64,000 nucleotides of DNA from an uncultured Gammaproteobacteria bacterium (GCA_965231015.1 OZ246408.1:147755-211754); one strand, 5' to 3'; counted from the first letter of the stretch, positions 2,838-45,558 are shown. Program-made: numbers and translations. The notes: a model not told the origin generated them from the sequence alone.

Positions 2838-2903
2838 AATCCGAAATCAGAATATCGAAATCCGAAACGTTTTGAATTTCTTATTTCGTGCTTTGAGTTT
2901 ATT

Positions 2904-3761
2904 ATGTTGGATCGTCAGAATTGCTTATTAATAGTTCCCGTGAATGACGAGGAAGCCTTTTTGATTGCCGAGATTGGAGAGAAGATTGGGATGCAAGTGT
3001 ATCGGTCGAGTCAAGAACATGGCGCGAAGTTAGAAGATGAAACAGGGATTATGGATGTTCTTGAATGTAGGGGCGAACGGCCGTTCGCCCATGTGATCAT
3101 TGTAGAAATGCCGGGGGTTGAGATCGAGAAAAGGATAAAGGATAAAGGACGATTTTTGCATATCATTGACCATCACCAGTACAACGATTTAGACCGGGCT
3201 CATGATAAAGACGGGAATGCTCTGCCAAGTTCACTGCACCAGTTCCTCGAGCTTGCAGAGATATCGGACTCTGAACTCGAGCAACTCGGTTACGATCCGC
3301 GACTGGTTCACGGAATCGGATATTGGGATGCTGGATATTTTTGGGGGTTGTTGGACGCTGGGTACTCGCGCGAGGAGATTGACCGGGTGGAGGAATATAA
3401 GAATGAACTCGGGGCGAAGATTCCTGGGCGGTTGCCGAGTAAGGAGGCTCGTGATGTGGCCGAGAAGGCTTGGAAGGCCAGGGAAGCTTGGAAGGACTTT
3501 CAGATCGTAGTGTCGGATGATCCGGATACATACATTCGTTCGTTGGTTTCTCGGTTGAGCGCTCGGGAGTACTGGAAACCCATGCCAATGATCATTGTTG
3601 AACGAGCCGGAAAGAGGATTTATGTTCAGGAATCACCTCGAACTCGAGATTTGTTTGAGCATTTTGGAGGGTTCACCTTTGGCTCGGACCGGAATTGGGG
3701 GTATGATAATGAGGAGGAGGTAAGAATAACGTTGGGGAGAGTAAAAGAATTTTTAAAATGA
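2904..3761 (+). CDS. hypothetical protein (contains a DHH tripeptide; no confident family)
   Basis: 285-aa ORF with host-like GC. It contains the 24-bp palindrome gtaggggcgaacggccgttcgccc at 3063-3086, encoding ECRGERPFAH. Confidence 0.5.
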   Translation: MLDRQNCLLIVPVNDEEAFLIAEIGEKIGMQVYRSSQEHGAKLEDETGIMDVLECRGERPFAHVIIVEMPGVEIEKRIKDKGRFLHIIDHHQYNDLDRAHDKDGNALPSSLHQFLELAEISDSELEQLGYDPRLVHGIGYWDAGYFWGLLDAGYSREEIDRVEEYKNELGAKIPGRLPSKEARDVAEKAWKAREAWKDFQIVVSDDPDTYIRSLVSRLSAREYWKPMPMIIVERAGKRIYVQESPRTRDLFEHFGGFTFGSDRNWGYDNEEEVRITLGRVKEFLK

Positions 3762-3762
3762 T

Positions 3763-5016
3763 ATGTCAGAAAGAGAAGGATACAAACCAAATATTGAAAA
3801 AATTGAGCACGGTGATCAAACAGAGCTTGGTCGCAGGTTAAAGGATGTTAAGGATAACCAAGAGTTAGTTAATGAGTTAGTAAAGCTGCGAGGTTCAGGG
3901 GAGATTAATGATTTGTCTCCGTCCGAACAGCGTGATCTGATAGATCGGGTTGTGGCTTGGTATTCGGAAAATTTGACTCAAGGAAAGGTTGATGGCTTTG
4001 ATGGTGCGATTATGGTCAATGGTCTATTTATGCCTTCCCGGCGTTCATACAAAGATAAGGATATTTTGGATGAGTATGCTAGCATGATGCCTGAAATATG
4101 GCTTCAATATCCCGAAGCTGCTCGCGAGTTATCTAATTTATTAGATCAAGATGCCCAGGTGGTTAACCCTGATGTGTATTTGGAATCTTTGGGAAAAATT
4201 TTTCGACAGCCGGGTCTGCCGCCTGATGCACTAACAGGTGCCGTGGCCGGTTTATCTTATCAGGCGAGTTTCGGTTTGATGCCTTTTCTTGAAAAAAGAA
4301 TGGACAATCTTGACGAGTTAGAGGTGGAGCAAGCCTCTTCTTTACTGTCTGTGTTAAACGCCACGTCTTCATACGGAGAAAATTTTGGTTTTTCAGAACA
4401 GTCAGCAGAGAAAATGGAAAGTATGTTGGAAGAGTTTCCTGAAAAAACCAACTCGGCTTTGTTAAAACGAAAGGCCGAGGCTATTTTGGAACAACGGTCT
4501 TCTGGGGGTGGTTTGCGATTTGATACTGAAGATATTCGAAATTGGATGGCTAATGATCGGGATACCTTTGATTATATTGATGAAGATAGGATTGAGGAGA
4601 TGTCGGACGATGAGCTATGTGATGAATTTGAATATGTTTTTAATCAAACTGCACATATTTTTCGTGAATACCTAATTGATAAAAAACGTGTGAAAATGGA
4701 ATCCCCGTATGGCACTGACCAGATTGATATTCACAGGTTGCAGCGGAGTAATGTTGGCGTGGTTCCAGTATCAAAAGAATACTACGGAGTTTATGATCTC
4801 AACGGTAAACTTATTGGCATGTTGAATAAAGAAAATGAAAAAGAAGTATATCAAGCCGAAGAGATGATTCATTTCGGTGATTTACCGATGATCGGTATTT
4901 CAGATGATTTGAATAGTGAGCAACGTGAGTATCGAATGCAGGCTCAACGAGATTATTCCATGTTGTTGGACAATAACCTCTTGGATGGTTTAGAAAAGAT
5001 TACTGTTTTTCAGTAA
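3763..5016 (+). CDS. hypothetical protein
   Basis: 417-aa ORF tightly packed after the upstream gene. No recognisable motif. Confidence 0.5.
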   Translation: MSEREGYKPNIEKIEHGDQTELGRRLKDVKDNQELVNELVKLRGSGEINDLSPSEQRDLIDRVVAWYSENLTQGKVDGFDGAIMVNGLFMPSRRSYKDKDILDEYASMMPEIWLQYPEAARELSNLLDQDAQVVNPDVYLESLGKIFRQPGLPPDALTGAVAGLSYQASFGLMPFLEKRMDNLDELEVEQASSLLSVLNATSSYGENFGFSEQSAEKMESMLEEFPEKTNSALLKRKAEAILEQRSSGGGLRFDTEDIRNWMANDRDTFDYIDEDRIEEMSDDELCDEFEYVFNQTAHIFREYLIDKKRVKMESPYGTDQIDIHRLQRSNVGVVPVSKEYYGVYDLNGKLIGMLNKENEKEVYQAEEMIHFGDLPMIGISDDLNSEQREYRMQAQRDYSMLLDNNLLDGLEKITVFQ

Positions 5017-5048
5017 GAGAATTAAGTACTCGAGAACAGATTTGGTTT

Positions 5049-6062
5049 ATGGCTTCACTTCGAGAAATTTCACCAAAGGAAGAAAAAGAAATCATGGAAT
5101 TTACAAAAAAATACGGCCTGGATGGAGCCCGGACTTTTCTTTCTTGTGAATACGGAGATGAATTCAGAGACACTGTTTTAAAGATTGATGAACGCATGGA
5201 CCGGGAAACCGCAGAATTGGTCTTTGCTCGGTATGGAGAGGTGGTGCAAGCGGCGCAAAATGTGGTTTCTGAAATAGAGGATTATCTTGGCTCGTCTGCC
5301 AAGGAGCAACTTGATCCGACCAAGTTGGAACAGAAGCTACTAGAAAAAGCCAAGGATTTTTTGGTTGATGTATCGGCTCAAGATTCTAAAAGGTTAGACG
5401 ATAAACTGAAAAGTTTTACTGCTGACGTGCAGCTTTTTGGAAATATTTTCAGAAGCTTGTTCAAAGGAAAGGAAAACCCGGATCTATCGATGGTTAAAAA
5501 TGTCGAGGTGGTCAGCCGGGAGGCGCAAGAAATCGATCAGAAGGACCAAGCAGCCATGCTCGATATTGCTGACAAGAACTGGCAAGAGATTCCGCGTATG
5601 CATGATTTTGTGGTCGGGTTGTTAAAGAAAAGCGTGGAAAATCCCAAGGAAGGTTCTGAGTTTAAGATTATGAAAAAAGATAATGACGTTCTGGCTTTTA
5701 TGCGGGTGGACAAGGGAGAAGATGGGTCAGCTCATATTGGATCCGTCAATGTGAATCCGAAATACCGCGGTTCAGCCATTGGTGAAGTCATGCTTAATCA
5801 GGCCGTGGAGCAGTTGGCAGCAGATCATGTAGTTAAACTTGAGGCTTATCCTGGTTCTTTGATTACGGTGGTTTACTGTGAAAAGTTTGGTTTTGTGGTG
5901 GATGGGGTGCATGAGATTCCGGTCGAAGGTGATGAACCGTTGTATGGATTCAACATGAAGCGAGATAATAAAGCGAATGAAAAGTATACAGCTCGAGCAG
6001 AACAGTTGGATCCTGAAAAACTGGTCAAGTTATCACAGAAACCAAACGAGGCCAAAAGTTAG
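5049..6062 (+). CDS. hypothetical protein with C-terminal GNAT N-acetyltransferase domain
   Basis: C-terminal YRGSAIGEVMLNQAV, a GNAT motif A-like pattern (R/Q-x-x-G-x-G/A). Confidence 0.55.
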   Translation: MASLREISPKEEKEIMEFTKKYGLDGARTFLSCEYGDEFRDTVLKIDERMDRETAELVFARYGEVVQAAQNVVSEIEDYLGSSAKEQLDPTKLEQKLLEKAKDFLVDVSAQDSKRLDDKLKSFTADVQLFGNIFRSLFKGKENPDLSMVKNVEVVSREAQEIDQKDQAAMLDIADKNWQEIPRMHDFVVGLLKKSVENPKEGSEFKIMKKDNDVLAFMRVDKGEDGSAHIGSVNVNPKYRGSAIGEVMLNQAVEQLAADHVVKLEAYPGSLITVVYCEKFGFVVDGVHEIPVEGDEPLYGFNMKRDNKANEKYTARAEQLDPEKLVKLSQKPNEAKS

Positions 6063-6149
6063 GCCTTGAGATTAAGAAATTTGATTTACGAAAGGTTTAC
6101 GATGAAATGATTGCCTCGGTTAAGGCAGAAACGGAAGAAGGAGAAGTGG

Positions 6150-6968
6150 CTAGCCGGTTGTTTGCTGATCCGAATGATCCTGATTCTCGAGTTGTGGTTT
6201 TTGAGAAGGCAAGTTAGAACAAGTAAACAATGCTTTAATGGTTGAGCGCATGGTTTTAGCCAAGCTCGGACTTTCAATAATCACGGCAATCATATTTTCG
6301 TGATCCATAAAGGCAACATTGTTTCCAAAAACACTAATATCCCCGGTAAAGGGGTATTTTTGTTCATCAATGACTGAAGCCTGACGCAGTTCAGACTGAC
6401 TTCGGCTCATCATTTCGGATACTCGTTTACTTGAGGAGCTCATCACAGCGAAAACCGGAATTTGGGCGGCAACGCGCTGTTTTAAATACGAGCCACGTAA
6501 CCACTTGAGCAGTGTGGTTTCTTGAGCTGGCGGGCCGATTAAGCTGTAAATCGGCTGGCCGGTTTTAAGAATGGTTTGGTACACCTCTTTCATGCCGCTG
6601 ACCCCTTCAAAGACTCGAAAAGCCGGTTTTTTGGTAATTAAGTTGAAATGGCTCTTTAGGGAAGGAAGAGTAGAATCGAGCTGGGAATATAAATTTTGCA
6701 CAGATTCAAGCCGGGCTTTAGCTAAACCACGCAAACGCTCCGGATCAACTGCTCGAAAGACAGTCTTTTTGCCAGTTTCTTCAATAACCAGCCCTTTTTC
6801 TTTTAAAGACGTTAAAACATTATAGGTATTGCCGCGGCCTAAATCAGTGAGTTTTACGAGTTCTGCTGCTGGTTTTGGTCCATATTCAAGCAAAACCTCG
6901 TATATTTGAACTTCTGAGCTGTTTAGACCAAGCTCTAAAAGGATAGGGAAATGGATTTCATGAGGCAT
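6150..6968 (-). CDS. TrmB-family transcriptional regulator
   Basis: N-terminal winged HTH ELGLNSSEVQIYEVLLEYGPKPAAELVKLTDLGRGNTYNVLTSLKEKGLV, typical of TrmB (PF01978). Confidence 0.7.
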   Translation of the reverse strand: MPHEIHFPILLELGLNSSEVQIYEVLLEYGPKPAAELVKLTDLGRGNTYNVLTSLKEKGLVIEETGKKTVFRAVDPERLRGLAKARLESVQNLYSQLDSTLPSLKSHFNLITKKPAFRVFEGVSGMKEVYQTILKTGQPIYSLIGPPAQETTLLKWLRGSYLKQRVAAQIPVFAVMSSSSKRVSEMMSRSQSELRQASVIDEQKYPFTGDISVFGNNVAFMDHENMIAVIIESPSLAKTMRSTIKALFTCSNLPSQKPQLENQDHSDQQTTG

Positions 6969-6981
6969 ATGGAGGGAGAAG

Positions 6982-7005
6982 GTAAAAGGTAAAGGGTAAA
7001 AGGGG
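6982..7005. repeat. purine-rich tract ggtaaaaggtaaagggtaaaagg; complementary to the pyrimidine-rich tract at 7376-7401 across the Avd-like gene
   Basis: Direct reading of the sequence. A related pair occurs at 9173-9188 and 9207-9234. Confidence 0.7.
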
Positions 7006-7086
7006 CTAAGTTTGCTGGGATTTTCTTAGGGCGGCAAGGGAAATCCAGAGTTGTTCGGTTAAAGCTCGAGTTTCGTTCCAGGAAGT

Positions 7087-7362
7087 TTAAGTGATGTATC
7101 CCTGATTAAGGGCGATTTTTAAGCAGGCGTCGGTTTCTGTTAGTGAGCCAAGAGCAATATTGAGAAAGCGTACGAATTCGGGTTTGGTGTTTCTGGAGCT
7201 CTCTTCAGCTAAATTAAGGTAAATTGAGATTGAAGCCCGGCGAATTTGGCTCGTTAGACCGAATTTTTCCTCGTCCGGAAAGCCTTTACTTAGGGAATAC
7301 ACTTGATTGACATAGTCTAAAATGACCTGGTTAACCCTTAGTTGTTCATATCGAAATTCCAT
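7087..7362 (-). CDS. four-helix-bundle protein of the Avd / 23S-rRNA-intervening-sequence protein family
   Basis: 91 aa. Sequence EFRYEQLRVNQVILDYV...FGLTSQIRRASISIYLNLAEE...FVRFLNIALGSLTETDACLKIALNQGY matches the four-helix-bundle family (TIGR02436/PF05635). No rRNA is present in the window. Confidence 0.7.
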   Translation of the reverse strand: MEFRYEQLRVNQVILDYVNQVYSLSKGFPDEEKFGLTSQIRRASISIYLNLAEESSRNTKPEFVRFLNIALGSLTETDACLKIALNQGYIT

Positions 7363-7375
7363 ATTTTGATTTCTT

Positions 7376-7401
7376 TTACCTCTTTCCTTTTTCCCTTTAC
7401 C
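7376..7401. repeat. pyrimidine-rich tract ttacctctttcctttttccctttacc; partner of 6982-7005
   Basis: In the minus-strand mRNA it becomes a purine-rich 5'UTR that can pair with the pyrimidine-rich 3'UTR, enclosing the ORF in a long stem. Confidence 0.6.
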
Positions 7402-7499
7402 ATCATAATATCATGAAAACGTCACTTAGTCAATGACAGGAGCTGTGGATAAGTCTGGGCTAAAATAAGCCAATTTTGAGGAATAGTGCCACTGACCCC

Positions 7500-7528
7500 T
7501 TGACAAGTTTTGTGTTTTGTGCTATACT
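7500..7528 (+). promoter_or_regulatory. sigma70-type promoter TTGACA-N17-TGcTATACT
   Basis: ccccTTGACAagttttgtgttttgtgcTATACTgg with an extended -10. It is divergent from the Avd-like gene. Confidence 0.7.
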
Positions 7529-7534
7529 GGTGTT

Positions 7535-7725
7535 AACAAGATGAGAAAAGGAAACGAAGAGCCTGGACTCATCAAGTACCTTCAAGAACAATATAGAGCG
7601 AGAGAGCCCGAGCCTGGGGTTATAAGGCATAAGTGAATGGATACATTTATAGATTGATAGATGTATACATTGACTAGACGGATTTAATTATCTCTTGCCG
7701 AGTTAGTTAGATCCGTCTTTTTTAT
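7535..7725 (+). ncRNA. small RNA module copy 1 (promoter-to-terminator, ~190 nt), unclassified
   Basis: It ends in a rho-independent terminator: gacggatttaattatctcttgccgagttagttagatccgtc followed by tttttt. It shares the motifs agagagccc(g/t)..ggg and tgtatacattga with copy 2. No conserved ORF. Confidence 0.55.
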
Positions 7726-8468
7726 AAGACAACAGTTCATTACTAGCATTTACGAATATCCGCAGTGATGACCGGCCCGGTCGGGCACGACAACCGACAG
7801 CGAGGCCATACGGAGGAGCGAGAGAGATCACCACGAATATGCGTAAGTGCATCTTACAAACCCAACTTCATGGGTTCTAACGAGTGCGCTACGCCTGGGA
7901 TCCCCAATCGGGTCGAGCCCAAGCGGAGCAGTCCTTAGAACCAGAGAGGATCAAGCGAGAGACAGAAAAACCTCTATTCGCGGGAAGTACCTTACAATTG
8001 AATACCAAATCGAAGAAGCAGGATGTAGATAAACGAACGAGAGAGATCTCTTGTCTAGGTTCTGCTTCCAGAGATCATGGATTCTAAAGTTATCCAAAAG
8101 GAAACTGTGGAGCATGACTCAATACATAACAGTGAAGTCGGGTCAGGGATTAATTACCAATCGTGATCTTATTATATAGATCGGCCTAGCGATCCGACTT
8201 CAATACTTTTTATGAATACAATTCTATTATCAACTTACATTCCTTTCATGATGGTCGTGGGAACGGTCAGTGTGGTTGGAGCGTGAGTCTTCCATAGCTC
8301 GCAAGGGAGAGAGCTTGCGAGTCTTGGAAGCCTCTGAATCAGATCCGTTATGACGGATCTGATTCAGGGAGAACGCTGCGAGGAAATGATTCTTCGCAGT
8401 GGATTAAAACGGTGCCCGTATGGGCGTTGGTGGCGTAATGCTACAACGGCCTTGAGGGGCTGCCGCAA

Positions 8469-8492
8469 AGCGTAGGGGCGAACGGCTGTTCG
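8469..8492. repeat. near-perfect 24-bp palindrome gtaggggcgaacggctgttcgccc (second copy of the 3063-3086 element)
   Basis: It differs by one base from the copy inside ORF 2904..3761. It sits about 10 bp upstream of the SD of the first GC-rich ORF. Confidence 0.8.
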
Positions 8493-8503
8493 CCCTGGAG
8501 GAG

Positions 8504-9040
8504 ATGACGATGACGACGACCACGACGAAGACAACGAAGACGACGAAGACGACGACGACGGCGCTGCCGCCGATTTCTCGACCGGCGGAGCGGCTGGAGG
8601 CCCTGCGGGGTCGTCTGATCTCGACACCCCGTGGTCCGTCCACGGGGATCGACCTCGGCCATGGCCGTCAGGTCCTGACGGAGGTCGTGTCCGTCCGACA
8701 AACGGACGGAGAGCTGGTCACCGGCCGTGATGCCCGTCACGGCCGGACCGTGCCGCTCGCGCGGCACATCGAATTCCTCCGTCGCAAGATCGCGGCGGAG
8801 AAGAAGCAGGCGGCAGCAGGCCGCCGCGGCCAGCAGGTCACTCGCCGCCGGCCGGGCAAGACCGCCCGTCGGCGGGAAGCGGCCGCCGCGGCCCGTCGCG
8901 AGGCAGAGGCCAAGGCAGAGGCCAAGGCCGCCGCGGCCCGTCGCGAGGCCGCGGAGCAGGCGGCCCGCGAGGCGGGCTGGAACTCGGCCGCGGAGCAGGC
9001 CGAGTGGGAGGTCCTCCTCACAGAAGAGCAGGCCGCCTAG
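8504..9040 (+). CDS. hypothetical protein, GC-rich island ORF 1
   Basis: Strong SD ggaggag before ATG. N-terminal Thr/Lys triplet repeat (MTMTTTTTKTTKTTKTT), Arg/Ala-rich coiled-coil-like C-terminus. GC ~68%. Confidence 0.5.
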   Translation: MTMTTTTTKTTKTTKTTTTALPPISRPAERLEALRGRLISTPRGPSTGIDLGHGRQVLTEVVSVRQTDGELVTGRDARHGRTVPLARHIEFLRRKIAAEKKQAAAGRRGQQVTRRRPGKTARRREAAAAARREAEAKAEAKAAAARREAAEQAAREAGWNSAAEQAEWEVLLTEEQAA

Positions 9041-9113
9041 CCCGCCCCCCTGATCCGTGCTTACGGGGCGATTGAAGCACGGCGGCCAAGGGACCGTTTC
9101 CCTCGCACTCGAA

Positions 9114-9150
9114 CCCCGAGCGGACGCGACGCACATCGCTTCGCTCGGGG
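9114..9150. repeat. conserved nested-hairpin motif copy 1 (ccccgagcgg-acgcgacgcacatcgc-...cgctcgggg)
   Basis: One of three near-identical ~37-nt elements, each lying 70-305 bp past the stop of a GC-rich ORF. Confidence 0.75.
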
Positions 9151-9172
9151 CCTCGATTGAGAATAGGAAATA

Positions 9173-9234
9173 GGTAAAAGGTAAAAGGATCTGAAAATCT
9201 GATTTTCTTACCTCTAACCCTTTACCCTTTCCCC
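9173..9234. repeat. hairpin built from ggtaaaaggtaaaagg / cctctaaccctttaccctttcccc tracts (same family as the tracts flanking the Avd-like gene)
   Basis: Direct reading. The central gaaaatc-t-gattttc is itself a palindrome. Confidence 0.6.
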
Positions 9235-9352
9235 TTCTGAATTGAGGCAACCGGGAAGTTTCTCTCGGTGACTCAAAGTGAAAACAAAACTCGGATTTAG
9301 CCACCCGGGTTTGAGAATGATCAGGTTGGCGACCTGAAAACGAGGAGAAAAG

Positions 9353-10372
9353 ATGTTCCAAATGACTATCAACGTTGCGGTCATGTTCTCGAAGTTCTTC
9401 AGCCCCGCCGACCGCGAGGCGGTGCTGGAGGCCATCCCGGCCGACGCCAAGAAGGTGCTGTTCGTGGACACGGGCGCCACGCCCGTGCTGGCGGACACGA
9501 TCCGCGTGCTCTTCGAGCGCGGGATCGAGGTGGTCGTCCGAGACCACCACCGTGGCGAGGGCAGGACGCCCGAGGCCGCGGAGGCGATCGAGAAGATCCT
9601 GGGCGACAACGCCCGGATCGTCTCGCGCGATGAGGCACCGGCGTGTGCCTCTCTCGTCGAGATCGCCGAGTTCGCCGAGGTCGGGACGGTCATCGTGGCC
9701 GATCCGGACCCGGACGGCCTGACCGCGGCCATGAAGGCGGCCGGCGTGACCTACGACGGCCTGGACCGCGACGCCGCGGTGCTCGACGGGCCGCGGTCCG
9801 AGCAGACCGCTGACCGGCTCTCGGATCTGGCGGTCCTGTTGACGAAGGGGATGGCGACCTTGCCCCCCTTCAACCCCAAGCGGCCGGAGGGGGGCGAGAA
9901 GGCGAAGAGCGAACACTTCGGAGAGTTTGTTGCCGCCACCCAGGGCGACGAGCAGGCCGTCGAGGCCTTGACCAAGAAGGTCGAGGTCTACGAGGTGCAG
10001 GTCTCGGAGGCCGAGCGCCTGGCCACCCGCGCCGAACAGATCCTGCCCGGCGTCTGGCTGGTCGACTGCCGCACCGGCGGCAGGTTCGACCTGGCCACGC
10101 TGGCCAAGGAGATCGAGTCCCGCCCCGGCTGCATCTGCACGGTGCAGATCAAGGGTATGGGTCCGATCGCAGCGGCCTGCGGGGGGATCCAGTACTCCTT
10201 GGCGGTGGTGAAGAGCCATCAGGCCGAGCTGGATCTCCGGAGCCTGGTCCCGGACGGCGCCGAGTCGAGCCCGGCAGCCGGACTCATCTCGAACACCTCC
10301 TTCCTCCTGCATGTGAGCCAGGAGAGGTGGATCCAGGAGATCGAGCCGGCGCTGCGCGCCCGGCTCGGCTAG
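9353..10372 (+). CDS. hypothetical protein, GC-rich island ORF 2
   Basis: SD aggagaaaag before ATG. 339 aa, GC ~67%. Contains DHH, DPDPD and EHFGEF segments. No confident family. Confidence 0.5.
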   Translation: MFQMTINVAVMFSKFFSPADREAVLEAIPADAKKVLFVDTGATPVLADTIRVLFERGIEVVVRDHHRGEGRTPEAAEAIEKILGDNARIVSRDEAPACASLVEIAEFAEVGTVIVADPDPDGLTAAMKAAGVTYDGLDRDAAVLDGPRSEQTADRLSDLAVLLTKGMATLPPFNPKRPEGGEKAKSEHFGEFVAATQGDEQAVEALTKKVEVYEVQVSEAERLATRAEQILPGVWLVDCRTGGRFDLATLAKEIESRPGCICTVQIKGMGPIAAACGGIQYSLAVVKSHQAELDLRSLVPDGAESSPAAGLISNTSFLLHVSQERWIQEIEPALRARLG

Positions 10373-10673
10373 TCCGGTTCACCTTTTCACGCGCAAGGGG
10401 TCGCGGGGAAAAGGGAAAGAAGAATGCTGCCGGTGCTGTGAAGCCGAAAGGTGGAGCTAGGCAGTAAAACCCCCCCAATCCTACAGATAGAGAGGATCTT
10501 CTATGATTGTAGGAAAACGCCACCGGTTAAGGCGTGATAATACAAATACCGGCTAATGGCCTTCGCCAAGGCTACACCGACGTATCGTGAACTTGTGGCG
10601 ACAAGTTATACGACAGTTGGTCTCTGCCAGGACCGGCCCGCAAGAGCTATATCTTGCATGCACTCGAGACATT

Positions 10674-10710
10674 CCCCGAGCGGACGCGACGCACATCGCA
10701 CCGTTCGGGG
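10674..10710. repeat. conserved nested-hairpin motif copy 2
   Basis: ccccgagcggacgcgacgcacatcgcaccgttcgggg, 302 bp after the ORF 2 stop. Confidence 0.75.
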
Positions 10711-11541
10711 ACTCGACCGAAGTCCGGAAATTTTCCGAACTTCAGTTGAGGAGAGTTAAACCAACACGCAGAGCAAACGGGCTCTGGTTAGGCCTCTTTT
10801 GGTCGCGGTTCTGTGGTGGTTCCGCGCCCCGGAGGTCTAACCGGAACCCCTTTGCCAGGGGTTGTTTATGTTTTGCTTCTAAAGTCCGTGAAATATTTCA
10901 TAGCCTTTGGAAGCGCCGTGAGGGAAATTGTTCCTTCGCGGTGTGGGGCAAGTGCTGATGCCCATTCATTCCAATTCAGCACAACTCTCATCGCCCGAAT
11001 ATCCTCTATAAGTGATAGTGTGCCTGTCATGAAATGGGGAGAATAGGGGTGATGAGATTGGAGAGCCATGAGAAAAATCATGGCCGGATGGTTGCGCAGC
11101 TCGAGCGGCATTCTTGTCGCGGGCTGTCTGCCATACGGACCGGTCCTGTGGGCGACATTGCTCACCTGTTTGGACCCCGCGTGCCGGCACCACGAGCCGG
11201 CAGCGCGGATCGTCACCCGCAAGTAGGTGATGATATCCGTAAGTCGCGATGCCCGGTGCGTTATCCGGGGAGGTCCTTTTCAGGGCCGGTGGCCGACGAG
11301 CCAAAGCGGGGCACCGCATGAAAAGCAGGGGGCGAGTCGGTTGCACACCGACCGCTCCCTTTCCACATCAGCGCGGAGACTCTAGCTCTCTTGCTGGCCG
11401 CCTTGTTTCCTAAGAGGCGTAACAGCCGCCGCTCTGATGTGGCCGCGTGAACATGCGTTCGCGCGGAAAACAGCCCCCGCCTATATCCGGAACGGGTCTG
11501 GATGAAATGGCAAGGGCAAACCGCATGAAAGGAGAAACAAC

Positions 11542-13773
11542 ATGCGGTGTTACACATGGTCCGGGGGCGAGCTCCGAGAGGGGCTCGCTCTGACCCAGGA
11601 CGATCGGCTCGGGCCGGTTGTGTTCCTGGGCGAGGCCGGGCGCGGCCGACGCTACGAAAAGGTAGCGCTCGGTCGGCGCGCTCCGGCCGAGGTGATCAAC
11701 GGGCGCGTGCTCGACGCGCACCCGGCCAAGATCACCCTGCCACCCCGGGACGGGAAGCCCGAGAAGAGCTTCTACGTCCTGGAGAAGCCGCGCCAGCACG
11801 GCGGTGACGCCGTGCTCGTGCGGGTGTACACGTACACGTCGTACATCCGCGGCGGGCGGGGATGTTGGCGGAGGATCGCCGGTGAGCCCATGACCCTGAT
11901 CTCCGGCTACGGCGCCTTCGGCGCTGCCGGCCGGGTCGGGAGCTGGGACGACGGGCTGATCGTCCTCCGCCACGGCGACGTGTTGCGCGTGTCCCCTTCG
12001 CGGGGACAGCACAGCTACGCGCTGTGGCTCGAGGCCGGCCGGCCGGTCACGGCCACCTGGCAGGACTACGAGAACCTCCAGGCGGTCGAGAAGGCCCAGC
12101 AGGTGCTCGAGCAGGCGGCGGAGACGCCCGAGGATCTCGATGTGATCTTCGGCCAGATGCGGACGTTCACGTTCGCGGGTGGCCAGATCACGGCGGGGCT
12201 AAAGGTGACGAAGGGCGCCACCGGCCCGGTCATCGCGTTCGGCGAGTCCGGACGCGGGCGTTCGCTCGTCGAGGTGCCCCTGGTCGGCCTCGACGTCACC
12301 AAGCAGAGCGACAACTACGGTCGCGAGAGCGAAGTGGTCGAGACGGCCAGCGTGGTCAAGCTCGACGAGAAGGCGGCGCCGGCGCGGTACAGCTGGGAGC
12401 AGCCCAAGGTCAATACGATCTACGGGCTCACCCAGACGGGCAAGTCGGAGGACGCCTTCCTCGTCCGCGTGTCGACCGCCGGCCCCTACACCAAGGGGAC
12501 CACCGGCACCGTCGACCCGTGGAAGGGCTCGCCCGTGGTCATCACCTCGGGCAGCGGTGCCCACGGTGACGCCGGCCGCGTCGGCGGGTGGGACGACGTC
12601 CTGCTCGTCGTGCGGGAGGGTGACGTGCTCTTCGTCCGCTCCGAAGGGGGCTACAAGAGCGCGGGTCCGTGGGCGCTGTACGTCGAGGGCGGCGAGCTCA
12701 AGGTCGAGTTCTGGCAGGAGTGGAAGCTCCGCGACGCCAAGAACGACCCCGAGTTCTACGTCGCCCAGCGCACCGCGCCGATGGGCCACACCCCCTCGGA
12801 GTGGGTCGGCCAGGTCGTGACGGTCTGCTACCTCTCGCAGGGGCAGTCCGGCTGTGGCCCGACCAAGACCTACCTCGAGGACCGCGCCACGGGCGAGCTC
12901 GTCCGGATCGGGCAGGAGTCGGTCGTCCTCAACCTCGGTTGGGACGGCAAGGACTACCACGAGTCCACCATCGGTGGTTCGTGGGTCAAGCTCGAGAAGG
13001 ACAAGCAGGTCCGGAAGCTCGACGGTGAGGAGGCGGAGAAGCGCAAGCAGATCCGCACCGAGGCCGAGGAGTTGAAGGACAAGGCCATCCTGGCCACGAA
13101 GCAGAGCCACTTCGAGCTGGCCGAGGCCACCTTGCGCCGCCAGGTGCAGGAGATCGCGCAGGAGTCAGGGTTCGACACCATGTCCACCGAGGGCTGGTAC
13201 GACTCCCTCACCTCCTGGGTCGAGAAGGCCAAGGCCGTGGTCGAGAAATGGCAGGCGACCGAGGCCGAGCTCAAGACGCTCGAGGAGCGCAAGAGCTCGG
13301 GTGAGGTGCTCGTGGACTTCGGCGGCCACTTCCGCGTGATGGGTGCCACCGGCAACGCCCAGTACTGGGTGATCATGCCGGACGGCTCCGAGCGCGACCC
13401 CGACGAGGTGGAGTACCGAAAGCGGTATACCTCGGAGGGGAGCAAAAAGTGGCGGCTGGTCGGTCCCGGGGAGCTGGCGATTTCGTGGTTCAAGGCCTAC
13501 ACGGCCGCGGACCACGAGTTTGTCGTCGACAAGCTCCCCGAGGGTGGTTGCACCGCGGAACAGCTCGTCACGGTTGAGCGCCTCGAGCGCGAGATCGACG
13601 AGCGATTCCGTGGCAGTGTCGGTTGCTCCGGGCAGTCTAGCCCGGACATCGGCCGTGGCTGGGATCTACAGCCAGCCCCCACCCCCACCGCCCCCGTGGT
13701 CGAGTCTACCGGGACGTCCGACTCTTCGGAGCCGGATCTCTCGAGTCTGCTCGGCAAGTGGGGCCGCCGCTAA
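11542..13773 (+). CDS. hypothetical protein with internal duplicated domain, GC-rich island ORF 3
   Basis: SD aaaggag before ATG. 743 aa. Two homologous segments (GYGAFGAAGRVGSWDDGLIVLRHGDVLRV and GSGAHGDAGRVGGWDDVLLVVREGDVLFV). Coiled-coil-like central region. Confidence 0.55.
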   Translation: MRCYTWSGGELREGLALTQDDRLGPVVFLGEAGRGRRYEKVALGRRAPAEVINGRVLDAHPAKITLPPRDGKPEKSFYVLEKPRQHGGDAVLVRVYTYTSYIRGGRGCWRRIAGEPMTLISGYGAFGAAGRVGSWDDGLIVLRHGDVLRVSPSRGQHSYALWLEAGRPVTATWQDYENLQAVEKAQQVLEQAAETPEDLDVIFGQMRTFTFAGGQITAGLKVTKGATGPVIAFGESGRGRSLVEVPLVGLDVTKQSDNYGRESEVVETASVVKLDEKAAPARYSWEQPKVNTIYGLTQTGKSEDAFLVRVSTAGPYTKGTTGTVDPWKGSPVVITSGSGAHGDAGRVGGWDDVLLVVREGDVLFVRSEGGYKSAGPWALYVEGGELKVEFWQEWKLRDAKNDPEFYVAQRTAPMGHTPSEWVGQVVTVCYLSQGQSGCGPTKTYLEDRATGELVRIGQESVVLNLGWDGKDYHESTIGGSWVKLEKDKQVRKLDGEEAEKRKQIRTEAEELKDKAILATKQSHFELAEATLRRQVQEIAQESGFDTMSTEGWYDSLTSWVEKAKAVVEKWQATEAELKTLEERKSSGEVLVDFGGHFRVMGATGNAQYWVIMPDGSERDPDEVEYRKRYTSEGSKKWRLVGPGELAISWFKAYTAADHEFVVDKLPEGGCTAEQLVTVERLEREIDERFRGSVGCSGQSSPDIGRGWDLQPAPTPTAPVVESTGTSDSSEPDLSSLLGKWGRR

Positions 13774-13943
13774 CCGAATCCCGTTCGGGCCCATGACGGC
13801 TCGGACGGGAACTATTCTTTCGGCCGAAAACTAAGAAGAGTAATGCCGTAAACTATGCTCTTCTGCGGACTATTCGTCCGTCCGCGCAAGCGGTAACAGA
13901 ATCGGCACTCCCCGGGCCGCCGCAAGGCCCGGTGCACATACAT

Positions 13944-13981
13944 CCCCGAGCGGTTGCGATTGCACATCGCGCCGCTCGGGG
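13944..13981. repeat. conserved nested-hairpin motif copy 3
   Basis: ccccgagcggttgcgattgcacatcgcgccgctcgggg, 170 bp after the ORF 3 stop. The loop shows coupled ac-to-tt and ac-to-at substitutions relative to copies 1 and 2. Confidence 0.75.
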
Positions 13982-14031
13982 CCTTAACTAAGATTGGGAA
14001 GTGATTCACAATCTTTAATAGGAGGTGAGAC

Positions 14032-14421
14032 TTGATCAGATTAACTCTGACGAGCGGACCGTACGCGGAACGCTCACGAAGCTTCTCGGACAAGATCGCG
14101 GATGACGGATCCGTTGTTGACGCGAACGAGCTTCTTGGATCTCTCGTCAACCACGGCTGGTCCTGGGAGATAGATCTTTCTTCTGCTAGCGCGGAAGAAT
14201 CCTTCATCTGGGGACGAGCCGACATGGTCGCGCGCATTGTTCGGGCGGTCATGGAGCGAAGACCGGTCTGGGTTTTGACCCGCCGGTTCGAGCCCATCGG
14301 TGATCCGTCCACGATCGTGGGAATGATCGAGGACGAGATCGTCGAAAGCGGGCGACTTGTTTACGTGGCTTCGGATGACGAACGAGGTGTTGTCATCGGG
14401 GCGCACGGGTACGAGGAATGA
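14032..14421 (+). CDS. hypothetical protein, GC-rich island ORF 4 (TTG start)
   Basis: SD aggagg 6 nt before a TTG start codon. 129 aa. Followed by the hairpin cccaacgttc...acgttggg at 14436-14472. Confidence 0.4.
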   Translation: MIRLTLTSGPYAERSRSFSDKIADDGSVVDANELLGSLVNHGWSWEIDLSSASAEESFIWGRADMVARIVRAVMERRPVWVLTRRFEPIGDPSTIVGMIEDEIVESGRLVYVASDDERGVVIGAHGYEE

Positions 14422-14579
14422 CCCGCCTTAACTCGCCCAACGTTCTTGAGGAGGATGAACGTTGGGCAAATCCACAAGTTCAGCAAATCAAATATCTGGC
14501 GGATGAGCCCTGAGCTCTCTCGCCAGGAGGAATTTGTCATTTGTTTGGCTCTGCTGGACTTGTGGATTTGAGCTTAATT

Positions 14580-14632
14580 TAGCCTAAATATCTTTGTCAG
14601 GTCTTGACAAACTTAAAAAAATATGGTATAGT
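14580..14632 (+). promoter_or_regulatory. promoter of the tagcctaaa...TCTTGACAAA-N17-TGgTATAGT family
   Basis: tagcctaaatatctttgtcaggtcTTGACAaacttaaaaaaatatggTATAGT. The upstream half matches the repeats flanking the DGR at 45365 and 48405. Confidence 0.7.
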
Positions 14633-14638
14633 GTGAGC

Positions 14639-14801
14639 GTTACAATCAAAGAGTTGAGAGAGCCCTGGTCCAGGGAAAAGGACAAATGCAAGAAACGGTA
14701 AATGTATACATGTATAAATTGATACATTGATACATTGATACATCTGTTCTTGCGAAACCGGATTTGGTTACCTCTCACGAGTTAATTAAATCCGGTTTTT
14801 T
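14639..14801 (+). ncRNA. small RNA module copy 2 (~160 nt), unclassified
   Basis: Terminator aaaccggattt...aaatccggtt plus ttttt. Contains gagagagccctggtccaggg and three tandem gatacatt units plus tgtatacat. Confidence 0.55.
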
Positions 14802-15770
14802 CATAAGCACAGATCTGAGGAGGAGAGCTCTGACACTAAACTTGAGGAGGGAGGTGTCGGGTGGTATTCAAGTGATTAATCCCGGTTTAACCCGTTCGAC
14901 GGGTTTTAGCTGGCACTATTCACACGCACGAATACCTGGTGGATATACCAACTGCTTGCAGTAGGTCAAGGTCCACATGCCCCTCAGTTCTGTGCTTGGG
15001 AAACCTAGCACCCTATGGCGTGGCCTTATGCTAGTAGTCTAGTAAGGTAAAATAAGTCGGGTGGAAGTCCCGGCCACGCCTGCAAAAATTCCGCCCAGTC
15101 AACAGACCGGGCGTGAAGATATATAAACAAATTTCAGAAAGGAGAAGATTGAAGTACTGAAAGGGTTGCAGGTTAACCCGCCCAAAAAACCTGATCGGGA
15201 TTTGGGACATGGTCGAGCCCGGATTCTAGACGCAAGACCAAAGGGACTATGAAGACGCCCTGCCAATCGAGCCCGTTACGTCATGGGCTGGCAAAAAGTA
15301 TCTTCGTCAAATTTTACAACCGGTGAATCAGGAGGAAGAAATCCGCTAGAGGATCAATCCGTTTGGCAAATCAATCAGATGGTTGAGTTGTGCCAAGAGA
15401 GGATCGGTGAATGCAGAAGGATTGAAGGTCGCTCGGGGGCTTGTTGCTAAGCTACCCGCCCGGGCGATAGTAAAAAACAACCTCGTTAATTCGAGGGTCA
15501 GGGTAGTCGGCGGAGCATGAGGTACTTGTGCTGGAACGTTAGGAACGCCTAAGGATAAAACCGGTGGCTAGTACGAAGCAAACCCAGCATAAAGGCCGTG
15601 CCGAAATTCCGGTACCCGTCGTCAGGTTCGCACCCAAACATGTCGGGCGTCACCTGCCCGTTAAATCCGTCTAGCCAACGGAAGTGGTGAGCCAAGGGGA
15701 AGCAGATCCCCCAGTGAGATTACTTTGGCCCGTGCAACACAAGCACTAACGTGTTGCACGGGCCTTTTCC
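14802..15770 (+). ncRNA. ORF-free ~0.95 kb region with extensive hairpins ending in a terminator-like perfect 12-bp stem (15729-15762) plus ccttttcc; candidate large structured RNA, family not identified
   Basis: No ORF of 60 aa or more on either strand between 14965 and 15890, in an otherwise tightly packed genome. The terminal stem is cccgtgcaacac/gtgttgcacggg. Confidence 0.3.
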
Positions 15771-15890
15771 TAAGAGCTTGATACAATTGAATCGAGCGTT
15801 TGGGTGAACATTCACACATGGGTATCACTTAAATGGTTAAAACAAAAAACCCCACAAAGTGAGAGTTTGTTCTCCATAATAAGAATTTTA

Positions 15891-16199
15891 TCAACTCTGC
15901 GGAAACGGTTCGAGTTCTAAGATTCGCCGAGCGTCATCCTCAGTAATCACAGAACGTTCGACCAGGATTTCAAGAGTGGCAGCTAATTTACGATCTTCCT
16001 TGCGAACCAATACTACAAGATCACCACGTAAGTCAGAGAGTTTTTCATCCAAGTAGTCCTTAGTGACCATAGTTGACTCAACCTTGTTTAGTCTTGATTC
16101 AACACCATCAAAACGATCGTCAACATGAGTTGAGAAATCGTTAATGGCCTCTAAAATTTCATTTTTTACAGCATCTTCCATACAAAGATAAAATATCAT
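15891..16199 (-). CDS. hypothetical protein (host-like GC)
   Basis: 102-aa ORF. Low confidence. Confidence 0.4.
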   Translation of the reverse strand: MIFYLCMEDAVKNEILEAINDFSTHVDDRFDGVESRLNKVESTMVTKDYLDEKLSDLRGDLVVLVRKEDRKLAATLEILVERSVITEDDARRILELEPFPQS

Positions 16200-16225
16200 G
16201 GTTCATTGATTTCGACAAGAAATCA

Positions 16226-16340
16226 CCCCATCTAAGTTCTCCAGCCTTTGCCAAGGCTTCGGCCGGCAAGTGGCGAGCTTGAGACCTTGGACGGAGGAAT
16301 GATCCTTCAAAGATTCAACCCACAGTGGAGTAATTCCGCA
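16226..16340. repeat. 115-bp perfect direct repeat, left copy
   Basis: accccatctaagttctccagcctttgccaaggcttcggccggcaagtggcgagcttgagaccttggacggaggaatgatccttcaaagattcaacccacagtggagtaattccgc. It is identical to 17243-17357. Confidence 0.9.
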
Positions 16341-17188
16341 TGGAGCGGAACAGAAACACTGGAGTCGTGATGAAGAATGCCATGATGAAGAATGCCATGA
16401 TGATCTTGACCGTTACAGTATTCACCTTCTGCCTCGGCTGCCTGGACTACGATCTGGTATCCGTCGAGGATGTCGGCGACGAGCACGACCTGGATCAGGT
16501 CGATCCGTCCGACGACGACCCCGATATTGGCGAGCCCCATGCTGTACCCAACGGCGACGAGTACGATTTGCCCGAGGGTGACGATGACACGATCAATCCC
16601 GAGGTCATGTGCGGCATGTACATTGATGACGGGTACTTCGGTACCCCCAACGCCGTCTATGTCGAGAGTCAGCCCATCTGGGGACGTTTGAGCCCGGACG
16701 TGGTCGAGATCAGTCAGGGTGACACGGTGGAGTTGAGCTACGTGATCTTGAACACTCCGTGCGCCGACATCGAGGTCAACTCCATGTTCATCGGAGTATA
16801 CGACTGGTCCAATCCCGAATGGCTCTGGGACCTGTTCGAAGCCTCGATCAGTATGGAGCTCGAGGAGACCTCGACAGGTGACCAGTTCACCCCACACGTC
16901 CCGGTTAACATGTTCGTGACCCCCACCGGCGACCAGCTTCACTATATCTGGAATAGTGATAACGGTCCCTACACCAACTGGGGATCCACACACATGGATG
17001 ATCTGGTCTTCACTCCCGGACAGGCCGAGGTGTTCACCTTCATCTTCACGGCCACAGAGTTCGCGCCAATCGGTAGTGAGTTTGAGATCAGTCTGACCGA
17101 ACTCACTTGGACCGACGTCACCACTGGGCACGACATCATGTCCTACCCATTCTGGGACGTGGCGACAACGGTTCGCGTTGTCGACTAG
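16340..17188 (+). CDS. hypothetical acidic secreted/lipoprotein-like protein (GC-rich)
   Basis: 282 aa. N-terminal hydrophobic segment ILTVTVFTFCLGC, then a highly acidic region. A 15-bp tandem duplication (atgaagaatgccatg x2) sits at the 5' end. The SD lies inside the direct repeat. Confidence 0.55.
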   Translation: MERNRNTGVVMKNAMMKNAMMILTVTVFTFCLGCLDYDLVSVEDVGDEHDLDQVDPSDDDPDIGEPHAVPNGDEYDLPEGDDDTINPEVMCGMYIDDGYFGTPNAVYVESQPIWGRLSPDVVEISQGDTVELSYVILNTPCADIEVNSMFIGVYDWSNPEWLWDLFEASISMELEETSTGDQFTPHVPVNMFVTPTGDQLHYIWNSDNGPYTNWGSTHMDDLVFTPGQAEVFTFIFTATEFAPIGSEFEISLTELTWTDVTTGHDIMSYPFWDVATTVRVVD

Positions 17189-39789: not shown

Positions 39790-40035
39790 ATTTTTAGCTT
39801 ACTACAAGCACGAGGATTATATGATAGTCCTGGTTTCTTGTCAATCCAACAATTAACTCTTCTTGGCTAATTTCTGCGCTAATTGTTTGGTTCCACGACC
39901 GCTGACTCGCATTTTTGGCTGTTTTTTTCGTTTTCTTCGTTCTGCCTTTTTGGCCAGCCGGGTTTCTTCCGGGTATTCACTCATAAGACGCTCTTAAGCC
40001 TTTACTATTTACATGATATACTGAAAGACAAGAAT

Positions 40036-40770
40036 ATGCGAGGTGAAATTGGGGGAAAATCCACAAGACATATCGGTTGGACCGTGTTAGCGGTGGTGCT
40101 TTTGATAATTTTAGCTCTTTTTGCCCTTCGGGTAATTATTATTTACGACAAGATTAGTAGAGGTGATTACCATGATTTAGCTATTGATTTTAGTGGATAT
40201 GTGAGCACAGGGCAGGGTTTGGTAGAAAGTAGTGATGACGAGGTGTATGATGTGGCGACAGAAGATGACCCGAGTTTTGGTCCTGATGGTGCGCCCTTAA
40301 CCATTGTGCAGTTTGCTGACTTTGATTGTCCGTATTGTGCAGATACCGCCTACACTGTTCGCCGCTTGCAAGGTCGGTATCCGGATCAAATTAAGTTTAT
40401 CTTTCGCGATTTTCCGATTACAGAAAATCATCCCGATGCTCAGTTAGCCGCCGAGGCAGCTGAGTGTGCCAACGAACAAGGAAAGTTTTGGGAGTTCCAT
40501 GATAAATTGTATCAGAACCAGTCAGATCAAAGCCGTGAGGTGTTAAAAAGATTCGCTGTTGAACTTAACATGGATTACAATGAATTTGTTGGTTGTTTAA
40601 ATAGTGGCCGTTATCGAAGTGAGGTTCAGGAAGATTACGCTGATGGAGTTATGGCCGGAGTTTATGGTACACCAACGTTCTTTTTTAACGGTCATCGAGT
40701 TCAGGGAGCAATTCCTGACGACGTTTTTTCACTCATCGTCGATGCTTTTTTAACGGGTACTGCCGAGTAG
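40036..40770 (+). CDS. DsbA-family thiol:disulfide oxidoreductase (membrane-anchored)
   Basis: TM anchor then the thioredoxin fold, with the CPYC active site in QFADFDCPYCA. Start set at ATG 40036; the track start 39883 is an upstream extension. Confidence 0.75.
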   Translation: MRGEIGGKSTRHIGWTVLAVVLLIILALFALRVIIIYDKISRGDYHDLAIDFSGYVSTGQGLVESSDDEVYDVATEDDPSFGPDGAPLTIVQFADFDCPYCADTAYTVRRLQGRYPDQIKFIFRDFPITENHPDAQLAAEAAECANEQGKFWEFHDKLYQNQSDQSREVLKRFAVELNMDYNEFVGCLNSGRYRSEVQEDYADGVMAGVYGTPTFFFNGHRVQGAIPDDVFSLIVDAFLTGTAE

Positions 40771-40771
40771 T

Positions 40772-42283: not shown

Positions 42284-42450
42284 CAATTGAAACAATCGGT
42301 TCAGAATGGGCCGGTTTTCCCCGCCAACGGTTCTACGTGGCGGAGTCCCGCCACGATTTGCGATGGCGGGATTTGTTTTGTTTACCCTTGTCTCTTGTCA
42401 GATAAAAAAATATGTGTTATCATCTCGAGCACTTGTAATAAAACCAAATT

Positions 42451-45364: not shown

Positions 45365-45413
45365 GCCTAAAATTAGGTCAAATCTTGACAAAGACACAAA
45401 ATGGTGCTATATT
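45365..45413 (+). promoter_or_regulatory. promoter-bearing repeat A (gcctaaaattaggtcaaatcTTGACAaag-N-TGcTATATT), left boundary of the DGR cassette
   Basis: A near-identical ~40-bp copy lies at 48405-48445, immediately after the RT stop. Confidence 0.75.
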
Positions 45414-45558
45414 TTGACCTTGATCATTCAAATTTCAAGGTTAAAATTTATATGAGATAAGTATTTTGTCTGGCTCGTTTGAGCTATGTAGAATACTTGT
45501 CTCATGTTAGAGACCGGTCGTTTATCCGAACGAGTCGGATGGTTGGCCAAAAAAGGAG

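Follow-up and report, generated by a model that had tools for sequence, protein, structure and literature searches.

A contiguous GC-rich island of genes with excess predicted RNA structure in a Candidate Phyla Radiation genome

The window, as we call the whole stretch of DNA analysed here, comprises 64,000 nucleotides of a genome of about 1.0 Mb from the Candidate Phyla Radiation (CPR), deposited under the name of an uncultured Gammaproteobacteria bacterium (GCA_965231015.1, OZ246408.1:147755-211754). It contains a GC-rich island of about 6 kb with four open reading frames (ORF1 to ORF4) and three copies of a nested hairpin. The coding sequences of the island are packed with predicted hairpins beyond what their proteins and codon usage account for, and homologues of ORF2 and ORF3 are GC-elevated in most of about 20 CPR genomes. 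GC content is 0.40-0.47 before 8 kb, 0.59-0.69 at 8-14 kb and about 0.49 beyond that, falling later to 0.42-0.47. The compositional steps are sharp and lie at about 8.3 and 14.4 kb. The rise from about 0.43 is the one that the original prediction had read from the sequence. The rest of the window is ordinary chromosome, with five aminoacyl-tRNA synthetases, RuvA, FemAB, RNase J, RNase P RNA, L19 and glycosyltransferases. The features are collected in Table 1.

Table 1. Features of the island and its surroundings, in window coordinates
Feature	Position	Strand	Description
TrmB-family transcription regulator gene	6150-6968	-	PF01978, E = 5.8e-17; host-like GC
23S-rRNA-intervening-sequence-protein gene	7087-7362	-	PF05635; outside the GC-rich part
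Near-consensus extended -10 sigma-70 promoter	7499-7528	+	CTTGACAA-N-TGCTATACT; 11/12 consensus matches, with TG; points into the island
Leader or small-RNA unit	7530-7730	+	About 190 nt; GAGAGAGCCC...GGG hairpin, A/T-rich GATACAT repeats, U-tract terminator at 7679-7728
ORF-less stretch	7731-8503	+	No codon periodicity; very strong hairpins at about 8260-8470, immediately 5' of ORF1
ORF1	8504-9040	+	178 aa; Thr-rich low-complexity N-terminus, Ala/Arg/Glu-rich C-terminal half
Nested hairpin, copy 1	9114-9150	+	Outer stem CCCCGAGCG/CGCTCGGGG, inner stem GCGA/UCGC, loop CGCACA; 73.7 bits, E = 6e-18
Second long hairpin after copy 1	9153-9245	+	GGTAAAAGG-type inverted repeats; z = -6.9
ORF2	9353-10372	+	339 aa; divergent DHH/DHHA1-type phosphoesterase (predicted), CPR-wide subfamily
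ORF-less structured spacer	10373-11541	+	1.17 kb; no codon periodicity; holds hairpin copy 2
Nested hairpin, copy 2	10673-10711	+	74.2 bits; second hairpin directly 3' (10712-10750)
ORF3	11542-13773	+	743 aa, CPR-specific; two repeated beta-rich modules, helical region, C-terminal beta domain
Nested hairpin, copy 3	13944-13981	+	Loop UUGCACA; 72 bits; then second hairpin at 13990-14016, abutting the ORF4 Shine-Dalgarno sequence
ORF4	14032-14421	+	129 aa; TTG start; Shine-Dalgarno sequence AGGAGGTG, duplex -16.1 kcal/mol
Island-closing hairpins	14435-14467 and 14468-14569	+	The second about 100 nt; z = -7.2
Second promoter, leader and U-tract terminator unit	14603-14806	+	Downstream island edge; terminator at 14755-14806
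Complete diversity-generating retroelement	45384-48405		Promoter 45384; target gene 45559-46470; variable repeat 46338-46468; template repeat 46849-46979
bAvd gene	47028-47495	-	Part of the retroelement

The four ORFs are real genes of an unusual kind. GC at third codon positions (GC3) is 0.83 in ORF1, 0.93 in ORF2, 0.91 in ORF3 and 0.65 in ORF4, and 0.33-0.51 in about 35 other genes of the window. In all four, the codon positions are ordered GC3 > GC1 > GC2; this is a periodic pattern of the coding type, and therefore they are not chance ORFs. All are on the plus strand, and consensus promoters are present only at 7499 and 14603. Each starts behind a strong Shine-Dalgarno (SD) sequence, with anti-SD duplex energies of -8.7 to -16.1 kcal/mol as against about +1 to -5 for most host genes. 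Both the positions of the four frames and the contrast of their SDs with those of the host had been anticipated correctly. Besides the island ORFs, a strong SD is found at the target gene of a diversity-generating retroelement (DGR) and at a few other genes. Most host genes are essentially without SD complementarity, and to judge from its sequence the genome appears to use mainly SD-independent initiation.

The same four coding sequences fold more strongly, in prediction, than shuffled versions of themselves. In the folding test, synonymous codons were shuffled within each gene, so that protein and codon usage were kept, and energies were predicted in 150-nt windows. The excess is -12.1 kcal/mol per 150 nt for ORF1 (z = -4.6), -9 to -11 for ORF2 (z = -4.7, or -6.7 with denser windows), -7 to -9 for ORF3 (z = -8.1 and -7.2) and -7.3 for ORF4 (z = -2.5). 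The energy density of ORF1 to ORF3 is -0.48 to -0.56 kcal/mol/nt, about twice the -0.25 of host genes; that of ORF4 is -0.33. With dinucleotide shuffles, scored per window, host genes come out at about 0, and ORF2 and ORF3 at about -2.5 to -3.3. The structure is local, and the longest helix in the island is at most 17 bp. Control genes in the window range from z = +1.4 to -1.3; they are IleRS, GlmS, TrmB, the PF05635 gene and the GC-rich genes at 16340 and 45559. A high GC3 does not produce the effect by itself: 14 unrelated genes with GC3 of 0.80-0.95 average z = -1.2 and go no lower than -3.2, and their excess averages -1.5 kcal/mol.

The excess extends to homologues in loci fetched from other CPR genomes, which carry labels of the form L002. 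ORF3-type homologues in L002, L003, L004, L009 and L033 have z-scores of -3.5 to -10.5, ORF2-type homologues in L029, L030, L031 and L064 of -4.0 to -18.9, and further island genes in other loci of -3.1 to -7.6. Control genes from the other loci fall between -0.1 and -3.1, and high-GC housekeeping genes of L033 between -1.3 and -1.6. Over the island ORFs and their homologues together, the excess over synonymous shuffles is 7-24 kcal/mol per 150 nt. The extreme case is the ORF2 homologue at 10001-11026 of L029, in a background of about 30% GC. It is predicted at -73 kcal/mol per 150 nt, as against -50 when shuffled (z about -19), and forms a chain of near-perfect stem-loops of 10-16 bp with 73% of its bases paired; perfect stems of 13-16 bp recur every 40-60 nt within the reading frame. 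In 7 of 7 genes the excess is greater on the sense strand than on the antisense strand, as expected where G-U pairs in RNA count. In L003 and L033, the latter from a genome of 65% GC, the excess structure occurs without GC elevation over the background. The island genes form a distinct expression class, marked by GC-rich codons, strong SDs and synonymous sites arranged into dense local hairpins.

The island is contiguous with the chromosome around it. A Logan contig from an independent assembly (run SRR7048225) is 100% identical to window positions 1542-16253, a span of 14,712 nt that covers both GC transitions. A family of GGTAAAAGG-type inverted repeats is common to the island and its low-GC flank. 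The island is also specific to CPR. ORF2 has 337 homologues and ORF3 has 77, and the organism names that the sources give for them are all Patescibacteria/CPR (Uhr-, Falkow-, Collier- and Parcubacteria). A few metagenome-assembled genomes from GTDB carry other labels in their titles; the gene contexts are all CPR-type. Finally, the locus is syntenic. L033 comes from a CPR genome whose IleRS is 50% identical to that of the window, and in it an ORF3 homologue lies between the same neighbours, namely IleRS and TrmB on the left and a 404/424-aa gene, RuvA, FemAB, DUF11 and DUF4012 on the right. A TrmB gene is found within a few kb upstream of an ORF3 or ORF2 homologue in L002, L004, L008, L009, L011, L013-L017, L029 and L031. 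TrmB is the island's conserved neighbour, usually divergent, and a candidate regulator of the island.

The GC excess is a family trait of these genes. In most of about 20 CPR genomes, with backgrounds from about 30% to 65% GC, the ORF3 or ORF2 homologue is richer in GC than its own flanks, by 5-25 GC points gene by gene. Examples for ORF2-type homologues are 0.56 versus about 0.30, 0.62 versus 0.40 and 0.69 versus 0.45, and for ORF3-type homologues 0.64 versus 0.44, 0.55 versus 0.39 and 0.49 versus 0.34. In L002 and L004 the pattern is a single-gene mosaic, with GC3 switching from gene to gene between 0.7-0.84 and 0.31-0.38. The gene content around the recurring anchor genes differs by genome (L002, L004, L029-L033, L064).

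The nested hairpins follow ORF1, ORF2 and ORF3 at 74, 302 and 171 nt from the stop codon. Each has an outer stem of 9-11 bp around an inner stem of 4 bp. A covariance model finds the three copies, as first described, at E of about 1e-17 each, with no other strong match in the 64-kb window, so that all three lie inside the island. Directly 3' of each copy is a companion hairpin of unrelated sequence, and the local folds have z-scores of -6 to -7. After ORF4, where a different hairpin had been noted, there are in fact two, the second much longer than the first. Related nested hairpins occur in the islands of L031, L011 and L014 (covariance model E of 1.5e-3 to 5e-3). The window, L011 and L031 have the same loop, GACGCACAUCG. 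The outer stem, CCCCGAGCG/CGCUCGGGG in the window, is CCCACCAGC/GUUGGUGGG in L011, where 6 of 9 pairs are changed on both sides and all still pair; in L031 the inner stem begins with an A-U pair in place of the G-C of the window. These stem changes were counted by hand from the sequences, as MAFFT put the stems one column off register. Other islands have their own repeated hairpins 15-60 nt past stop codons; L031 has eight such copies and L033 has two.

Neither a terminator nor a recombination site is a good description of the nested hairpins. The U tract that ends the canonical terminators of this genome (7679-7728 and 14755-14806) is absent after them, a second hairpin standing in its place, and a terminator scan did not list them. 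They show no GTTRRRY core and no extrahelical bases in the predicted fold, and their stems are near-perfect, all of which are unlike attC sites. Rfam 15, run over 7300-15300, gave nothing at E <= 0.01; three chance-level matches (E of 0.012-0.97) were far under the gathering scores. A search of 241 million metagenome records yielded no complete copy. A 23-nt pattern of the 5' arm plus loop has 28 matches there, which are due to chance, since all lack the 3' arm and lie in unrelated high-GC contigs. Since no complete copy turned up, the hairpin is not the common terminator of some high-GC organism, a condition under which the original prediction would have failed. With no U tract, and with the loop kept while the stem covaries, the predicted folds make 3'-end protection, processing or protein binding more likely roles than termination or recombination.

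Repeated GC-rich stem-loops without U tracts between genes recall the repetitive extragenic palindromic (REP) sequences and bacterial interspersed mosaic elements (BIME). Such intercistronic palindromes stabilise the upstream mRNA, as in the malEFG operon of E. coli. The likeness includes genome-specific families and a plausible role in 3'-end protection. Unlike REP and BIME, the copies in the 64-kb window are confined to the island rather than scattered, their loop is kept across genomes while the stem covaries, and they are part of a larger structure signal that runs through the coding regions. In that last respect the island is more like the genomes of single-stranded RNA phages (Leviviricetes), whose coding sequence is folded into hairpins throughout, with operator-like intergenic hairpins and GC above that of the host. 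The island shares the throughout-folded coding sequence, the hairpins between genes and the GC above host. It differs in being chromosomal DNA at a syntenic locus, with no replicase, coat or maturation protein and no PHROG match.

Among the four proteins, ORF2 has a recognisable fold. Its Pfam match to DHH is weak (E = 1.7e-4, 22.3 bits, under the gathering cut-off of 28.1), and by sequence its best match among PDB profiles has E = 0.0086. The AlphaFold model (predicted local distance difference test score 92.5) is matched by Foldseek to pAp phosphatase 8a8k in the PDB (9e-8, probability 1.0) and to GdpP, PggH, NrnA-type and RecJ structures, with E from 9e-8 to 1e-4. It shares with these enzymes the two-domain fold and the RDHH and ADPDxDG motifs. 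Both motifs are invariant, RDHH in 16 of 16 family sequences. Unlike them, it falls below the Pfam cut-off, and no canonical GGGH motif is recognised in its C-terminal domain. On the modelled fold, ORF2 is a predicted DHH/DHHA1 phosphoesterase of a CPR-specific subfamily. The statement that none of the ORFs belongs to a recognisable family thus fails for ORF2. ORF1 is an orphan whose sole match among 5.8 billion proteins is itself. L011 has an analogous A/E/R-rich ORF, followed 79 nt on by the same type of hairpin. ORF3 has no recognisable fold and no match among predicted viral structures. ORF4 is in a conserved family of small proteins, with at least 150 cluster representatives at E <= 1e-3 and at least 69 at E <= 1e-10. 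The GC-elevated island of L030 includes a DEAD-box helicase gene (12536-14530), which is hairpin-rich as well (z = -7.6). Helicase and DHH phosphoesterase together hint at an RNA-metabolism theme.

Promoters of the type CTTGACAA-N-TGnTATAnT number three in the window: one leads into the island (7499), one comes just past its end (14603) and one precedes the GC-rich DGR target gene (45384). The same promoter stands next to TrmB in L002, L004, L008 and L013, and in L030 without a TrmB neighbour. The leader unit behind the 7499 promoter is 70% identical to L004:899-1101, beside the TrmB gene of that locus, and the stem of its terminator covaries, with 7 pairs changed on both sides among three sequences. 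An idea of tandem 220-nt units at 7530-8260, based on short repeats, was abandoned; alignment relates only the units at 7530 and 14634. Since the terminator at 7728 is downstream of the 7499 promoter, expression of the island from that promoter would need read-through. The leader starts with an ATG almost at the predicted transcription start, which opens a 31-codon ORF (MRKGNEEPGLIKYLQEQYRAREPEPGVIRHK, 7541-7636) with a loosely similar counterpart in L004 at about 1017-1160. It may encode a small leaderless peptide, or the conservation may be that of the RNA only. A palindrome, GTCAATGAC, lies at 7431-7439 between divergent promoters at 7433-7405 (minus strand) and 7499-7528 (plus strand), and is kept next to TrmB in L004 at about 905-913. 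Its position makes it a candidate operator.

Codon periodicity was sought in the three ORF-less stretches, 7363-8503, 10373-11541 and 14422-15890, and none was found. In places they are no less structured than the genes, with fold z-scores of -7.6 to -8.6 over 8250-8474 and, in the spacer between ORF2 and ORF3, of -4 to -7 over 10575-11100 and -5.9 at 11325-11474. Pseudogene remnants are ruled out here by the absence of codon periodicity and of tblastx similarity, and the spacer has no similarity to any of the fetched loci. Two further genes of the window, at 16340-17188 and 54361-54888, have raised GC3 (0.76 and 0.58) and no excess RNA structure (z = -1.3 each); not every GC-rich gene of the genome falls in the hairpin-rich class. 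At the island edge an AT-rich gene (15891-16199, minus strand) encodes a small coiled-coil protein of 102 aa. Four paralogues of this family occur in the L004 island (3206-3400, 3701-3922, 7401-7652 and 12900-13214), where they sit between GC-rich genes on the opposite strand.

The Avd-family and DGR-linked repeats that had been assigned to the island lie elsewhere. The 23S-rRNA-intervening-sequence-protein gene has no reverse transcriptase and no template or variable repeat nearby, and is not part of a DGR. It sits in the loop of an inverted repeat of about 30 bp made of GGTAAAAGG-type units (6974-7003 and 7373-7401), and 9153-9245 inside the island is an "empty" copy of the same flanking stem with a short loop. 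The two, 6974-7401 and 9153-9245, resemble the cargo-bearing and the cargo-free form of a small palindromic mobile element. PF05635 genes are found near the islands of L011 and L064 as well. The complete DGR is far downstream and has the sole template/variable repeat pair of the window, at 46.3-47.0 kb; no variable repeat lies in the island. A link between DGR and island was rejected on the ground that the template repeat has this single variable repeat. Over 131 nt the two repeats share 82% identity and, by eye, differ only at template adenines; in a longer local alignment 33 of 39 mismatches are at a template A. The target protein has 303 aa and no Pfam match; its gene has a GC3 of 0.77, a strong SD and no excess RNA structure. 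The reverse transcriptase of the DGR comes in two overlapping ORFs (47283-48041 and 47827-48405), and PF00078 is matched half by one and half by the other; the cause is a frameshift, a sequencing error or programmed frameshifting. Upstream of the DGR, the gene order DSBA, T4SS-pilin-like, UvrA is common to window positions 39883-45312 and L002 13449-18908. In L002 this block directly adjoins the GC-rich island; in the window it adjoins the DGR, 28 kb from the island.

We favour, at a probability of roughly 55%, the interpretation that this is a native, long-resident CPR island under selection for heavily structured mRNA, and one case of an island found across the radiation. Selection would act on the secondary structure of the sense-strand RNA, and the structure-packed genes probably explain the high GC, which would be a by-product of that selection and not a foreign mark. 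Transcription would start at 7499 and pass through the leader with its terminator at 7728, an arrangement that suggests attenuation control, possibly involving TrmB. Strong SDs may be needed because messages so structured could not depend on AU-rich initiation regions free of structure. The 37-nt hairpins would be intercistronic or 3'-untranslated RNA elements, each with its second hairpin directly 3'. As to purpose, we suggest with low confidence that a few strongly conserved proteins, namely the DHH/DHHA1 phosphoesterase, ORF3 and small proteins, are provided with nuclease- and Rho-resistant mRNAs that are long-lived or conditionally translated and SD-dependent. A more radical version makes the RNA itself the product: the folded transcripts would be stored, partitioned or exported, and the GACGCACAUCG hairpin would be a handle for binding or packaging by an island protein, for example ORF3. 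We think this rather unlikely. If true, it would be a CPR-wide mode of expression or RNA handling without a described bacterial counterpart.

Several observations weigh against selection for structure. All of the folding of the island is predicted, from sequence alone. Among 12 divergent ORF3 homologues there is no consensus structure, and hairpin positions are not kept; selection would need to target general structuredness with fast turnover, which would be unusual. A close trio of ORF3 genes does share structure (mean z = -2.0), and the N-terminal third of five ORF2-type genes has common hairpins in which synonymous changes compensate each other. In a covariation test on these five, which is supportive only, having no more than five sequences and a structure taken from the same alignment, 79% of cells are paired versus 72% when shuffled (the observed value was reached in 0 of 500 shuffles), and 25 pairs are changed on both sides versus 13.9 expected; slid controls are 38-50% paired. 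The homologues in L015 and L018 have no GC elevation. The DGR target (45559-46470) and 16340-17188 are GC3-rich without excess structure, so structure selection cannot account for all of the GC-rich genes here. Finally, the similarity of ORF3 between genomes exceeds that of UvrA, IleRS or RuvA, which could reflect exchange among CPR lineages and not strict vertical descent.

The last point is shared by two explanations that involve movement of DNA among CPR. One is a mobile array of the cassette type, in which units of ORF plus hairpin are turned over by site-specific or single-stranded DNA recombination, the hairpins are the recombination sites, and the GC-rich composition comes from a shared cassette pool. 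The original prediction had seen a cassette-like series, and that description survives so far as SD-led ORFs each followed by hairpins go, in this island and in other CPR islands. As in integron arrays, the ORFs are co-oriented and mostly promoterless, each followed by an imperfect palindrome, the content is variable, with a GC mosaic at the scale of genes, and one strong promoter lies at one end. Every island also has its own homogenised repeat family at gene ends. What an integron would require on top of this is missing. By Pfam, there is no integrase, recombinase, transposase, relaxase or phage gene among the window ORFs of at least 120 aa judged real plus a few shorter ones. There is no IntI or attI, and the hairpins are without R/L boxes or attC cores and at variable distances from the stop. 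The ORFs have strong SDs of their own, and both flanks and the anchor genes are syntenic. Moreover, the structure fills the coding sequence and favours the sense strand, which points to RNA. The phage collection (50,697 records) has no DNA match to the island, 72,556 plasmids have no match to ORF3, and IMG/VR has no ORF2 relatives and only two weak partial ORF3 matches. PHROGs gave a chance-level ORF2 match only, with no family fitting ORF1 to ORF4, and PADLOC assigned the island proteins to no family. A phage, plasmid or defence origin was rejected on these searches. We consider a cassette array unlikely, if less so than any of the other alternatives. The second explanation is a recombination hot spot with GC-biased gene conversion among CPR, the hairpins being incidental. 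It draws on the same ORF3 identity and variable content, on a GC offset that tracks host GC, and on the GC3-rich genes without excess structure. GC bias alone does not account for 7-24 kcal/mol per 150 nt beyond shuffles that preserve codon usage, and it leaves unexplained the near-perfect 13-16 bp stems within coding sequence, the sense-antisense asymmetry, the structure without GC elevation in L003 and L033, and the low-GC genes interleaved at a scale of 500 bp. As the whole explanation we judge it improbable. As a contributor, gene conversion could add to the GC excess and may have to be invoked for those GC-rich genes that show no excess structure, but it has no means of creating hairpins.

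The remaining explanations place the source of the GC outside CPR or outside biology, and both had been put forward with the original prediction. Recent acquisition from a high-GC organism, such as an actinobacterial host of an episymbiont, would suit a GC3 of 0.9 and strong SDs, which are typical of high-GC Gram-positives. The island also resembles acquired genomic islands in its sharp anomaly of GC and codon usage and its mostly uncharacterised genes. Unlike those, it has no mobility genes or flanking direct repeats, and no tRNA gene within 20 kb. The same locus is found in distant relatives, with both flanks syntenic in L033, and the anomaly itself is conserved across the radiation: the same genes are GC-elevated over backgrounds of about 30-46% and present at the same place in a CPR genome of 65% GC. 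With homologues named as CPR only, the oddly labelled GTDB genomes in CPR-type contexts, and the complete hairpin absent from the metagenome records, a donor outside CPR is very improbable. A chimeric assembly, joining a high-GC contig to a CPR genome, would explain the sharp steps. It is contradicted by the independent assembly across both junctions, by the repeat family common to island and flank, and by the same architecture in many unrelated assemblies, and we give it next to no credence.

For a native island under selection for structured mRNA, we found no described precedent of a hairpin-packed gene island. For CPR, a full-text literature search brought up nothing about GC-rich islands, TrmB or the structure of mRNAs; its coverage was incomplete, and this is absence of evidence only. 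CPR make up a large share of bacterial diversity, and most of their conserved genes are without known function. Here, two conserved CPR proteins and their variable companions are encoded unlike ordinary bacterial genes, with GC3 up to 0.5 over background. If this is confirmed, calling foreign DNA or contamination by composition would systematically mislabel native conserved genes of CPR genomes, and selection on mRNA structure could set gene-specific base composition over long evolutionary times. There would also be a testable regulon, consisting of TrmB, the leader-terminator and the hairpin-rich mRNAs, and with it a handle on mRNA stability, dormancy and nuclease conflict in CPR.

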